Below, piece by piece: positions 1,553 through 13,989 of a stretch of 22,205 nucleotides of DNA. Numbering within the stretch: the first letter of the stretch is position 1; every line of letters begins with the position of its first letter. The notes below the pieces were generated by a model, which was given only the letters and a program-made list of their open reading frames with translations, did no database searches and was not told the DNA's origin. The translations under genes were made by a program, and so were the position numbers. Origin of the DNA: a virus (lineage: Duplodnaviria > Heunggongvirae > Uroviricota > Caudoviricetes); the IMG/VR virus record IMGVR_UViG_2671181094_000007, positions 1 through 22,205 of that record. One strand, given 5' to 3'.

Positions 1553-1741
1553 TCACGAGGACTGAAGTTTCTCGCAATTAAAATTTATCAGTTTTACTTT
1601 CTGCTCTCTGGAAACGCCTGCTTCTTTTTTACCTGAGAGCATTTTTTCGCATTCTGATTTCGTTAGTTTAGATTTTGAATATCTTGTCCAGTTAGTAGGA
1701 GTGCCACCTTCCTTTTCAATTGTAGCGGTAATTTTATACAT
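1553..1741 (-). CDS. Small hypothetical protein (YdaC-like position), 62 aa
   Basis: ORF beginning MYKITATIEKEGG with GGAGG 5 nt upstream of the ATG; the start overlaps the last codons of ralR. Lies between xis and ralR, where ydaC sits in Rac; identity by position only. Confidence 0.45.
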   Translation of the reverse strand: MYKITATIEKEGGTPTNWTRYSKSKLTKSECEKMLSGKKEAGVSREQKVKLINFNCEKLQSS

Positions 1742-1940
1742 GAACGCCTCCATTAATATTTTCAGTGGTTCGTTTATTCCATCTTTCGAGCGCTTCTTTT
1801 TCACTTCCACCATAGCCAGTTCGGGATTCGCATCCGTTGCATTTTGCCCGGTAATATCCTGAAATGTCTTTCACCGTTACTGATGGACAACCACAAAACG
1901 GACATGGTTTAACATCGTCATATCTCAAAGTTTTTGTCAT
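1734..1940 (-). CDS. ralR: Restriction alleviation protein RalR/Lar family, 68 aa
   Basis: MTKTLRYDDVKPCPFCGCPSVTVKDISGYYRAKCNGCESRTGYGGSEKEALERWNKR with a four-Cys zinc-ribbon-like pattern; position between recT and xis as in Rac. Confidence 0.8.
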   Translation of the reverse strand: MTKTLRYDDVKPCPFCGCPSVTVKDISGYYRAKCNGCESRTGYGGSEKEALERWNKRTTENINGGVHV

Positions 1941-12303: not shown

Positions 12304-12472
12304 TTTTGGTTCAACTAAATACAACGTCAGTTTTGAAGAATGGCATGAACTGTTAATGGACTATGCAGAGTTACGTGGTGGCAGTGCTGCTGATGCTGAA
12401 GCATGGCGTGATGATTATGAAGCAGGAAAAACTCCGGTCGAAGCATATTGTGATGAGTGGGGCGATGAATGA
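12296..12472 (+). CDS. Hyper-acidic small protein, 58 aa (absent from the ORF track)
   Basis: Hand translation from the ATG at 12296: MADFGSTKYNVSFEEWHELLMDYAELRGGSAADAEAWRDDYEAGKTPVEAYCDEWGDE then stop. Start overlaps the upstream stop (ATGGCTGA) and its stop overlaps the next ATG (ATGA), suggesting a coupled chain. Confidence 0.45.
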   Translation: MADFGSTKYNVSFEEWHELLMDYAELRGGSAADAEAWRDDYEAGKTPVEAYCDEWGDE

Positions 12473-12785
12473 GCGAGGTTAATTATCAGGAAGGGCATGA
12501 AACGGCGGGGCAAGCAAAAACAGTGGCATGGCGATATCGCTACGTGAAAAAAAAGGCGTTACGGACTTTCAGGGGAAGTAGTGGTCTGGTGACTGGAAAT
12601 ATGTACCGAAAAAAGAGGATTGTAACGACAGGCCGAACTATGAAATTCAGGCCTTATTCACTGCCCCGCCAGTCCCGGTTACATCAGAAGAACTGGTTAA
12701 AGCTGTGCACTTTTATGAACAACTAAAACGCGAAAATCCACCAGCATCCGGAAACCTGATTACAGATTCCCAGATAAGGCAATGA
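12469..12785 (+). pseudogene. Interrupted ORF: frame-1 start (12469) and protein-like frame-0 continuation (to 12785) meet at an A_AAA_AAG heptamer; either a programmed -1 frameshift gene or a 1-nt indel pseudogene
   Basis: Frame-1 ORF MSEVNYQEGHETAGQAKTVAWRYRYVKKK... turns basic and low-complexity after about codon 48. The -1 frame from 12609 reads EDCNDRPNYEIQALFTAPPVPVTSEELVKAVHFYEQLKRENPPASGNLITDSQIRQ and contains no ATG. The frames meet at A AAA AAG (12609-12615). Confidence 0.3.
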
Positions 12786-12955
12786 GCTACCTGGCGCAGA
12801 ACGGGCTGATAAGTATGGGGAATGTTTTACGATGAATATTTAGACTAAAGAGTTTGTAACGCTATGTAAGTGATTTTTTCTGGTTTAGATATTTATATGT
12901 CCGGCCAAATTGAGGTGTGTTTAAATGTAATTGCACATTGATTGTAGGAGGAATA

Positions 12956-13135
12956 ATGAAAAACGCATTGCAGTTTTTGTTTGTTGCGTTCTGGTTGTTC
13001 GTATCATGTATGCCCATCATCTTCACAGCAAGGTATATGGAAAAAGTTGATGTTTTGATATTAATATTTGGATATATAAATGCCCTTTTTTTAGGGGTGT
13101 TCATGGCGGTCATGTGCATTGAATACTGGCGGTAA
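12956..13135 (+). CDS. Small hydrophobic membrane protein, 59 aa, two predicted TM helices
   Basis: GGAGG 6 nt before the ATG at 12956; MKNALQFLFVAFWLFVSCMPIIFTARYMEKVDVLILIFGYINALFLGVFMAVMCIEYWR; AT-rich codon usage. Confidence 0.45.
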   Translation: MKNALQFLFVAFWLFVSCMPIIFTARYMEKVDVLILIFGYINALFLGVFMAVMCIEYWR

Positions 13136-13393
13136 ATACAGCGAACGCCATTGGTTTAGTTGGATATTTACTGTGCCGGACAAAAACGGTTTGCGGGGAA
13201 ATCTTAGTTAAGTAGAATGACTGCGGGTGCTTGAGGCTATCTGTCTCAGGCATGAACACCAAAAGGCAGATAGAGAAAAGCCCCAGTTAACATTACGCGT
13301 CCTGCAAGACGCTTAACATTAATCTGAGGCCATATCTATGCGACACATAGAGATTAGCCTCTTACGGACCGAAAGGTCAAGGAGAAGCAGGCT

Positions 13394-13549
13394 ATGAAGC
13401 AGCAAAAGGCGATGTTAATCGCCCTGATCGTCATCTGTTTAACCGTCATAGTGACGGCACTGGTAACGAGGAAAGACCTCTGCGAGGTACGAATCCGAAC
13501 CGGCCAGACGGAGGTCGCTGTCTTCACAGCTTACGAACCTGAGGAGTAA
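13394..13549 (+). CDS. hokD: Hok-family type I toxin (HokD/RelF-like), 51 aa
   Basis: MKQQKAMLIALIVICLTVIVTALVTRKDLCEVRIRTGQTEVAVFTAYEPEE: single TM helix and conserved Hok C-terminus. A 19-codon upstream ORF (MRHIEISLLRTERSRRSRL) ends overlapping the hok ATG, mok-like. Confidence 0.85.
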   Translation: MKQQKAMLIALIVICLTVIVTALVTRKDLCEVRIRTGQTEVAVFTAYEPEE

Positions 13550-13619
13550 GAGACCTGGCGGGGGAGAAATCCCTCGCCACCTCTGATGTGTCAGGCATCC
13601 TCAACGCACCCGCACTTAA

Positions 13620-13644
13620 CCCGCTTCGGCGGGTTTTGTTTTTT
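13620..13644 (+). terminator. Rho-independent terminator downstream of hok
   Basis: CCCGC-TTCG-GCGGG stem-loop followed by TTTTGTTTTTT. Confidence 0.6.
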
Positions 13645-13716
13645 CCTGGCATTCTGGTTTACAATTCGCACGTCAGCCTGAACACCTGACACCTGCTGCG
13701 CCAGCAGAGAAAACAG

Positions 13717-13989
13717 ATGGCGCACAAAACCAAATTTCACAATTCTGATACCGACCTTGCCATCCGGCATGAGCGGCGTTCACACGCATTTAAAACCGAC
13801 TGGTACCAACACCCACCATGTACTGAAGAACAGGCCGAATGGCTGATTCATTCTTACCGCAGGCGCGGGTTCGAGGTTAAGAAAGCTCTCAGTCTCGACT
13901 ATCGGCACTGGATAATCTCTGTCAGGCTGCCTTATTCCGAACGCCCACCACGTCCGTCCCGCACTTTCCAGCAACGGATCTGGAGGTAA
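13717..13989 (+). CDS. rem: Rem-like small protein, 90 aa
   Basis: MAHKTKFHNSDTDLAIRHERRSHAFKTDWYQHPPCTEEQAEWLIHSYRRRGFEVKKALSLDYRHWIISVRLPY...; immediately upstream of the ydfU-like gene, matching the rem-ydfU order of E. coli Qin prophage (recalled). Confidence 0.6.
   Translation: MAHKTKFHNSDTDLAIRHERRSHAFKTDWYQHPPCTEEQAEWLIHSYRRRGFEVKKALSLDYRHWIISVRLPYSERPPRPSRTFQQRIWR

Follow-up and report, generated by a model that had tools for sequence, protein, structure and literature searches.

Type I toxin-antitoxin loci of the hok/sok kind are already known: they are annotated in related phages and have been studied experimentally. Closure of the message by pairing of its 5' tac (translational activator) with its 3' fbi (fold-back inhibition) element is the defining feature of hok mRNAs. 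The hokD (relF) gene of the Qin cryptic prophage in E. coli K-12, which has relB-relE immediately upstream, is thought to be a harmless prophage passenger. The hok/sok (parB) locus of R1, in contrast to prophage loci, is plasmid-borne and has a proven role in post-segregational killing. Processing at the 3' end, RNase III cleavage, RNA stability and killing on loss of Sok have been shown for R1 and in part for the hokW-sokW pair (PMC9841398, PMC8621323). The latter belongs to the hokW-mokW-sokW locus of phage 933W and the Sakai prophage Sp5 (AF125520). In 933W, mokW, hokW and an opposite-strand sokW misc_RNA have been annotated since deposition, and the sokW of Sp5 has been shown to act as an antitoxin (Takada et al. 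2021, PMC8621323).

We analysed a 22,205-nucleotide stretch of viral DNA, referred to here as the window. Positions 13190-13645 very probably hold a complete type I toxin-antitoxin module of the hok/sok type (hokD/hokW subfamily), carried by an E. coli Rac-family lambdoid prophage. The copy looks ordinary and is apparently intact. The window aligns across 99% of its length, with 99.5% identity, to a Rac-family prophage adjoining ttcA in E. coli CH4796. The order of genes in that prophage is intR, xisR, ralR, recT, recE, racC, kilR, sieB and the immunity and replication genes, followed by hok, a DUF968 gene, rusA, Q, the lysis genes and trkG. The position of the hok locus is the nin region: it follows the replication genes, precedes Q and has the orientation of both. 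Another type I system, ralR/RalA, is also present. A tRNA scan of the window found none.

The elements of the locus are given below. Statements about conservation refer to an alignment of 67 non-redundant full-length mRNA regions, mutually at least four edits apart, taken from viral contigs, phages and plasmids.

13191-13218, plus strand: putative hok promoter, with -35 TTGCGG (13191-13196), a 16-nt spacer and -10 TAGAAT (13213-13218)
13225-13236, plus strand: tac, GGGTGCTTGAGG, at the predicted 5' end of the hok mRNA
13237-13273, plus strand: 5' hairpin with arms CTATCTG (13237-13243) and CAGATAG (13267-13273), overlapping the metastable/tac-switch region
13276-13344, minus strand: predicted Sok antisense RNA of about 69 nt, with coordinates transferred from the sokW of 933W and predicted ends good to about 5 nt either way
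13278-13286, plus strand: ucb or anti-SD (anti-Shine-Dalgarno) box, AAGCCCCAG, predicted to pair with the mok Shine-Dalgarno (SD) region in the closed form
13287-13295 and 13313-13321, either strand: two copies of TTAACATTA that flank a GCGTC...GACGC core and form the arms of the predicted sokT/Sok-terminator hairpin
13326-13329, plus strand: mok SD sequence GAGG, 8 nt before the mok ATG and invariant in the 67 relatives
13338-13397, plus strand: mok leader ORF of 19 codons and TGA, MRHIEISLLRTERSRRSRL
13351-13380, minus strand: putative Sok promoter, with -35 TTGACC (13380-13375), an 18-nt spacer and -10 TAATCT (13356-13351)
13379-13383, plus strand: hok SD sequence AGGAG, inside mok and nearly invariant in the 67 relatives
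13394-13549, plus strand: hok toxin gene, 51 aa, identical to K-12 HokD
13557-13578, plus strand: 3' GC-rich hairpin, GGCGGGGGAGAAATCCCTCGCC, which presumably protects the hok mRNA at its 3' end once it has been processed to the translatable form
13599-13611, plus strand: fbi, CCTCAACGCACCC, complementary to tac with one bulged C
13618-13645, plus strand: putative intrinsic terminator of the hok mRNA, with a stem at 13618-13635 and then the T-run TTGTTTTTTC

A first-pass annotation, made by eye from the DNA, had proposed a 51-aa Hok-family toxin, a 19-codon ORF with its stop overlapping the hok ATG, a structured leader with inverted CTATCTG/CAGATAG arms and an intrinsic terminator at 13620-13644. 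All of these hold. The small hydrophobic product is a member of the Hok/Gef toxin family, matching Pfam HOK_GEF (PF01848) with an E value of 1.2e-23 (82.9 bits against a cutoff of 22) and PHROG 251, "MokW-like host killing", with an E value of 2.8e-33. The mok ORF runs from the ATG at 13338 to the TGA at 13395-13397, which overlaps the hok ATG as ATGA. As an open reading frame it has its own SD sequence and spans the hok SD up to the hok start. The arms and the terminator stem were found at the positions listed above. A comparison of the leader fold with the tac, fbi and ucb elements reproduced the closed form, as described below.

The 51-aa protein encoded by K-12 hokD is the same as that of the window, and both loci are followed by a gene for a DUF968 protein, which in K-12 is YdfU. 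In the window, a short ORF stands where K-12 has rem. The DNA is about 99% identical over a stretch that begins 16 nt before the hok ATG and takes in fbi and the terminator. The two loci differ upstream of that point. There the window has tac, the anti-SD box, the mok start, sokT and the Sok promoter, of which K-12 hokD retains no more than a small part of the Sok promoter, and K-12 has relBE, which the window does not. The absence of relBE had been noted in the first-pass annotation and is borne out here, since the small ORFs upstream (12469-12726 and 12917/12956-13135) have no Pfam or PHROG match and are neither RelB nor RelE. One small hydrophobic ORF upstream of the hok locus is unannotated. 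The Rfam sok model has no match at K-12 hokD. Given this, and the start of K-12 homology only 16 nt before the ATG, the window appears to hold the intact form of what K-12 truncates. Judged by its sequence, then, the window does not have the relBE-hokD arrangement of K-12; its product is HokD, but the locus appears to be an intact form of ancestral type. This prophage copy is the natural form with which to compare the truncated K-12 gene.

The leader of the hok mRNA is a conserved structured RNA. Rfam family RF01794 matches 13225-13396 on the plus strand with 106.7 bits (gathering score 59, E value 1.1e-23). The model aligns over its full length (model positions 1-157), with position 1 at 13225, the start of tac, and the last position on the hok AUG. 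The tac is invariant and 100% paired in the 67 relatives, and the anti-SD box is invariant as well. For the predicted full-length transcript (13225-13644), the folding energy is -175.1 kcal/mol, compared with -125.4 +/- 6.0 for shuffled sequences (z = -8.4). In the minimum-energy fold, the first 12 nt, GGGUGCUUGAGG, pair with CCUCAACGCACCC at 13599-13611, a predicted long-range tac/fbi helix that would close the full-length mRNA. In the same closed fold, GCCCCAG (13280-13286) of the anti-SD box pairs with CUGAGGC of the mok SD region. The counterparts in R1 are an anti-SD box at A70-C75 and a mok SD sequence GAGG at 105-108 (PMC9841398). When the RNA was truncated at its 3' end (13225-13596), the minimum-energy fold paired tac with an adjoining local hairpin of the metastable type and not with the anti-SD box, so minimum-energy prediction does not yield the "open" form. 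Inspection shows that tac nucleotides 2-8 could, as in R1, form a helix with 13278-13284 that has a single mismatch.

The putative hok promoter ends 7 nt upstream of the predicted +1 at 13225, and 933W and "Escherichia phage Rac" (MN652886) share its -10 hexamer TAGAAT. A generic sigma-70 scan of 12900-13900 reported no promoter on either strand; for the hok promoter this can be attributed to the weak -35. We rejected the empty scan as proof of absence. The hok and Sok hexamers both fall below the scan thresholds, and the Sok -10 has been validated in the 933W/Sp5 homologue.

A Sok antisense RNA had been expected on the first reading, which considered it unannotated and impossible to place with confidence. 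It is indeed unannotated in the identical E. coli copies in RefSeq, but sokW is annotated for the subfamily in 933W, and homology to sokW puts the Sok gene on the minus strand, running from about 13344 to about 13276. These coordinates come from an alignment with the sokW misc_RNA of 933W (our locus L001, 1594-1664, minus strand). In the predicted Sok, a 5' tail that is complementary to the first codons of mok is followed by a long terminator hairpin (13282-13329) and by GGGGCUUUU at the 3' end. As far as sequence can tell, an antisense Sok gene with its own promoter and terminator lies over the mok start region. The -10 motif TAAYCT and the TTG of the -35 are conserved across the 67 relatives. 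Mutation of the corresponding -10 of the Sp5 sokW (TAACCT) abolished antitoxin activity (PMC8621323, primer YO-421, Fig. 1E legend), and the sokW RNA was detected on northern blots with a plus-sense probe (PMC8621323, Table 2).

Folding of the candidate supports the same strand. In the minus-strand fold (-31.7 kcal/mol, z = -5.2), the 5' segment is only weakly paired, with a marginal hairpin of 5 bp, and leads into a long hairpin and then CUUUUCUCU. The plus strand of the same interval, 13276-13344, folds at only -18.8 kcal/mol, and the minus-strand hairpin is thus 13 kcal/mol more stable. The difference can be traced to the two TTAACATTA copies. These had been read at first as direct repeats in the leader; both copies exist, but the first lies about 10 nt to the left of where it had been put, and they are better described as arms of the Sok hairpin. 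The TTAA within each copy is self-complementary, and the central CA/TG forms G.U pairs on the minus strand but C.A mismatches on the plus strand, which makes the minus-strand hairpin the more stable one. This strand asymmetry gives independent support for a functional minus-strand RNA.

Conservation across the relatives favours the predicted mRNA structure. Standard pairs occur in 97.4% of cells, compared with 36-42% when partners are slid, where the structure scored is the minimum-energy fold of the window, itself derived from one member of the alignment, and where the clade is shallow (95% mean column identity). Changes on both sides of a pair number 11, compared with 3.8 +/- 1.4 in shuffles (none of 500 reached 11) and at most 5 in the slid controls. 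The 5' hairpin shows a compensatory change from A-U to G-C (CTGTCTG/CAGACAG) in 8 of the 67 sequences, and the 3' hairpin at 13557-13578 also has compensatory changes among the relatives. The tac/fbi helix is paired in 67/67, with all six variant cells G.U and zero double compensations within the clade. In the R1-type locus, tac/fbi pairing is retained with the sequences of both sides altered.

The locus of 933W and Sp5, which like that of the window is on a lambdoid prophage, is about 91% identical in DNA over the leader, hok and the 3' UTR. It has the same tac, anti-SD box, sokT hairpin, Sok promoter layout and fbi, and HokW of 933W differs from the Hok of the window in only a few C-terminal residues. 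The Sok promoters differ in detail: the -10 is TAATCT in the window and TAACCT in 933W, and the -35 and spacer are TTGACC-18 and TTGCCT-17, respectively. The mok of 933W is in frame with hok at an offset of 57 nt between the two start codons, giving a 70-aa N-terminally extended Hok, whereas the offset in the window is 56 nt and mok has 19 codons. This difference arises from a loop that is 2 nt shorter in the window together with 1 extra nt. The terminator sequence of the window is not found at the 3' end in 933W, where the locus is near the tail-fibre end and not in the nin region of a Rac-type prophage.

R1 and R1-type IncFII plasmids share with the window the tac/fbi closure, the mok SD and anti-SD box, 19 mok codons before hok and a convergent Sok promoter inside mok. 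An R1-type locus (L205) matches the same Rfam family with 87 bits and, like the window, has a UUACGAA motif at the C-terminal Tyr codon. The R1 Hok protein is only distantly similar; HokW and R1 Hok are 44% identical (PMC8621323). The R1 mok has 70 codons, is out of frame and overlaps nearly all of hok, in contrast to the 19 codons of the window, and its tac/fbi sequences are GGCGCUU/AAGCGCC where those of the window are GGGUGCUU...AACGCACCC. The mok/hok locus of "Escherichia phage Rac" (MN652886), from the same prophage family and likewise upstream of a rem-like gene, is about 95% identical in DNA. Its mok resembles that of R1, with an offset of 58 nt and 68 codons out of frame with hok.

By homology to the hok/sok of plasmid R1 and the hokW/sokW of phage Sp5, we infer the following mechanism, in which the transcript ends, the processing, Sok expression and toxicity in the context of the window are taken over from those systems, while the sequence elements, the predicted pairings and their conservation are those observed here. 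The weak promoter would produce a hok mRNA of about 420 nt (13225 to about 13645). In the full-length mRNA, the 5' tac would be paired with the 3' fbi, and the anti-SD box (13278-13286) would hold the mok ribosome-binding site (13326-13329), so that this RNA would be neither translated nor bound by Sok. Slow 3' trimming to the stable hairpin at 13557-13578, which is presumed to protect the 3' end of the processed mRNA as in R1 (PMC9841398), would remove fbi, and the 5' end would refold and expose the mok start region. The unstable Sok, about 69 nt on the minus strand from 13344 to 13276, would pair with this region, blocking mok translation and leading to RNase III cleavage. Once Sok runs out, ribosomes translating the 19 codons of mok would pass the hok SD and terminate at the mok UGA, which overlaps the AUG of hok. 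Such a stop would permit translation of hok, and the 51-aa Hok would enter the inner membrane and kill or lyse the cell.

The biological role would also be drawn from homology. As reported for hokW-sokW, the module may stabilise the prophage, help lysis on induction, or both. That it is mainly a phage accessory, acting in lysis timing or anti-phage exclusion and not as a stability (addiction) element, is quite possible, if tentative. On induction, read-through from the early-right operon might swamp the convergent Sok promoter, releasing Hok to help lysis. The location between the replication genes and Q, in the orientation of both, is consistent with such a role. In Sp5, hokW-sokW raises phage release about two-fold, and after mitomycin C sokW falls and HokW rises in a RecA-dependent manner (PMC8621323). 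The 933W/Sp5 locus is elsewhere in its genome, however, so the read-through idea is not directly transferable. Moreover, a lysis accessory would be an alternative role for a hok/sok module and not an alternative identity.

The 19-codon mok is one of several alleles. We surveyed 84 loci with the same hok start sequence, nearly all with an identical Hok protein. Most of these (67/84) have a mok-to-hok ATG offset of 57 nt, with mok in frame and encoding a 70-aa extended Hok. The 56-nt offset of the window, with 19 codons, occurs in 12 of the 84, the R1-like offset of 58 nt (68 codons, out of frame) in one, and the remaining four have a truncated leader and no offset. An exact-match scan of viral contigs for the 30-mer of the window-type allele found it in at least 119. 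Because one set was chosen by an identical Hok and the other by the 30-mer of the window, both are biased and the allele frequencies are only rough.

The predominance of the in-frame offset, with the window type in a minority, raises the possibility that a 2-nt deletion after the mok ATG has uncoupled hok, leaving a silent or decaying copy whose toxin is never made, a harmless passenger of the prophage. In the genome nearest to the window, hok has a nonsense mutation, which indicates that the toxin is dispensable, and hok is disrupted in about 6 of 107 evaluable copies of the 19-codon allele. Chromosomal hok/sok loci have also been reported inactive in post-segregational killing (Pedersen and Gerdes 1999, as cited in bioRxiv 10.1101/2025.08.07.668861). 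We nevertheless consider a decayed copy unlikely. Saturation mutagenesis of R1 showed that mok translation is needed up to the hok SD and start and that stop codons past the hok start do no harm (PMC9841398), and the mok of the window ends at the hok AUG, past the hok SD. The 19-codon ORF is kept in 117 of the 119 viral contigs that carry the window-type allele, hok is full-length in about 101 of the 107 evaluable copies (about 94%), and the allele occurs in many contexts (at least 33 upstream and 39 downstream flank types). The tac, fbi, anti-SD box and Sok promoter are all intact, which is not so in K-12 hokD.

A complete module with a shortened mok is thus the reading we favour. As R1 likewise has exactly 19 mok codons before the hok start, and as stops farther downstream are harmless there, the mok of the window can be regarded as a natural minimal version, probably sufficient for coupling to hok. 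The allele series, which covers all three frames and includes the 19-codon mok, offers natural support for the view that translation of mok to the hok start suffices.

The indels that change the frame are found in mok codons 2-5, which form the loop of a small hairpin containing the mok AUG and are complementary to the 5' tail of Sok. The length of this loop varies from 5 to 9 nt among the relatives, giving the offsets of 56, 57 and 58 nt, and codons 2-5 have the highest column entropy in the alignment although the stem is kept in most haplotypes. The loop might be under diversifying selection for specificity of Sok/hok pairing, limiting cross-regulation among co-resident prophage copies, but we find this doubtful. 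If it were true, the 19-codon mok would be a by-product, and a natural demonstration that the sequence and frame of Mok are irrelevant. Two prophage contigs (L116 and L136) of a single genome, IMG 2617270997, carry the same window-type allele, and strict orthogonality is therefore unsupported. We rejected a description of the mok-start loop as uniquely hypervariable, since the loop of the 5' hairpin and the hairpin of the 3' UTR have at least as many distinct haplotypes.

It is highly improbable that the Rfam match at 13225-13396 represents a functional small RNA gene on the plus strand, as its strand and its family label ("sok antitoxin (CssrC)", typed "Gene; antitoxin") would suggest, because the RF01794 model spans the hok mRNA from its 5' end to the hok AUG and matches the hok-sense strand in 933W (where sokW is opposite and inside the match), in Rac MN652886 and in the R1-type plasmid locus, because the probe that detects sokW has the sense of the plus strand (PMC8621323, Table 2), and because the hairpin is stronger on the minus strand. 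The model describes the hok leader and not the Sok strand in these loci, and the Rfam "sok" family thus marks the hok-sense leader, not the antisense gene.

The hok region is common in E. coli. Many complete genomes, among them those of EC958, JJ1886 and H10407, have a 100% identical copy of a 551-nt query containing it. Matches to at least some part of this query occur in 4956 of 5426 genomes, and matches over at least 80% of the query length in 2785, with a median of 2 and a maximum of 10 copies per genome. RefSeq labels the identical copies only as "hokD", with mok and Sok unannotated, and so misses them even though the full regulatory apparatus is found in many E. coli genomes. The significance of the locus is small and lies mainly in annotation. 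As a minor observation, the Tyr47 codon of hok, TAC (13532-13534), lies within a TACG motif that is a site of A-to-I editing by TadA; editing of hokD by TadA at TACG has been reported (PMC5630033).

In Escherichia coli CH4796, the nearest genome to the window, the hok/sok locus is identical to that of the window except for a C to T change at window position 13490. This substitution converts the Arg33 codon CGA to the stop codon TGA and cuts the CH4796 Hok to 32 aa, a nonsense allele that knocks out the toxin naturally in a single step. Downstream of that position in the intact gene, the C-terminal Tyr codon of hok lies within a TACG motif of the kind edited by TadA:

13531-13537, plus strand: UUACGAA motif, spanning the hok Tyr47 codon TAC (13532-13534)

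The TACG motif has been described as a target of TadA A-to-I editing, with recoding of Tyr to Cys, in hokC, hokD and hokE (alignment position 46; PMC5630033). TACGAA is unchanged in our alignment of non-redundant relatives of the hok mRNA region, A3 (67 of 67), and is also carried by the R1-type hok.

Three related prophage loci (L022, L035 and L063) have a shorter, unrelated sequence in place of sokT, the Sok-terminator hairpin (A3 columns 61-100), and retain tac, the anti-SD box, the mok SD, hok and fbi. The arms of the replacement still pair, with three pairs of helix 4 changed on both sides, and the exchanged hairpin probably represents a different Sok specificity type. The highest variability among the relatives falls in mok codons 2-5 (A3 columns 107-133, window 13331-13355), which make up the mok-AUG hairpin loop, the target of the predicted Sok 5' tail. 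This stretch occurs in 19 haplotypes with loops of 5-9 nt and, as a result of these length differences, mok is found in each of the three possible frames with respect to hok.

The Rfam model RF01794, named "sok antitoxin", represents the hok-sense strand, running from the 5' end of the hok mRNA to the hok AUG, in the window (13225-13396), in phage 933W (L001), in the phage Rac locus MN652886 (L003) and in an R1-type plasmid (L205). Annotation pipelines using RF01794 would assign Sok to the wrong strand.

The Rac-type prophage that carries hok/sok has a second type I toxin-antitoxin system, ralR/RalA, in which the sRNA overlaps the end of the toxin gene:

1557-1735, plus strand: RalA antitoxin sRNA (Rfam RF02694, 218 bits, E 2.5e-52)
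about 1734-1928, minus strand: ralR toxin gene

The window as a whole (1-22205) is a Rac-family prophage far more complete than the Rac of K-12, which is a remnant. From intR the order is recET, kilR, sieB, replication, nin region, Q and lysis cassette, and trkG occupies the right end; a tRNA scan of the full window found zero tRNA genes.

Two small open reading frames lie close to hok/sok:

12956-13135, plus strand: 59-aa hydrophobic ORF (beginning MKNALQFLFVAFWLF), with an AGGAGG SD
13591-13770, minus strand: 59-aa "hypothetical protein", annotated in RefSeq copies of the region

The first, which is without annotation in the RefSeq copies and had no match in Pfam and PHROG searches, is located in an island of 35% GC (12800-13140) within a window of 46% GC overall. 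The second, which crosses both fbi and the terminator of hok and also overlaps the following ORF on the plus strand, is probably a spurious call.
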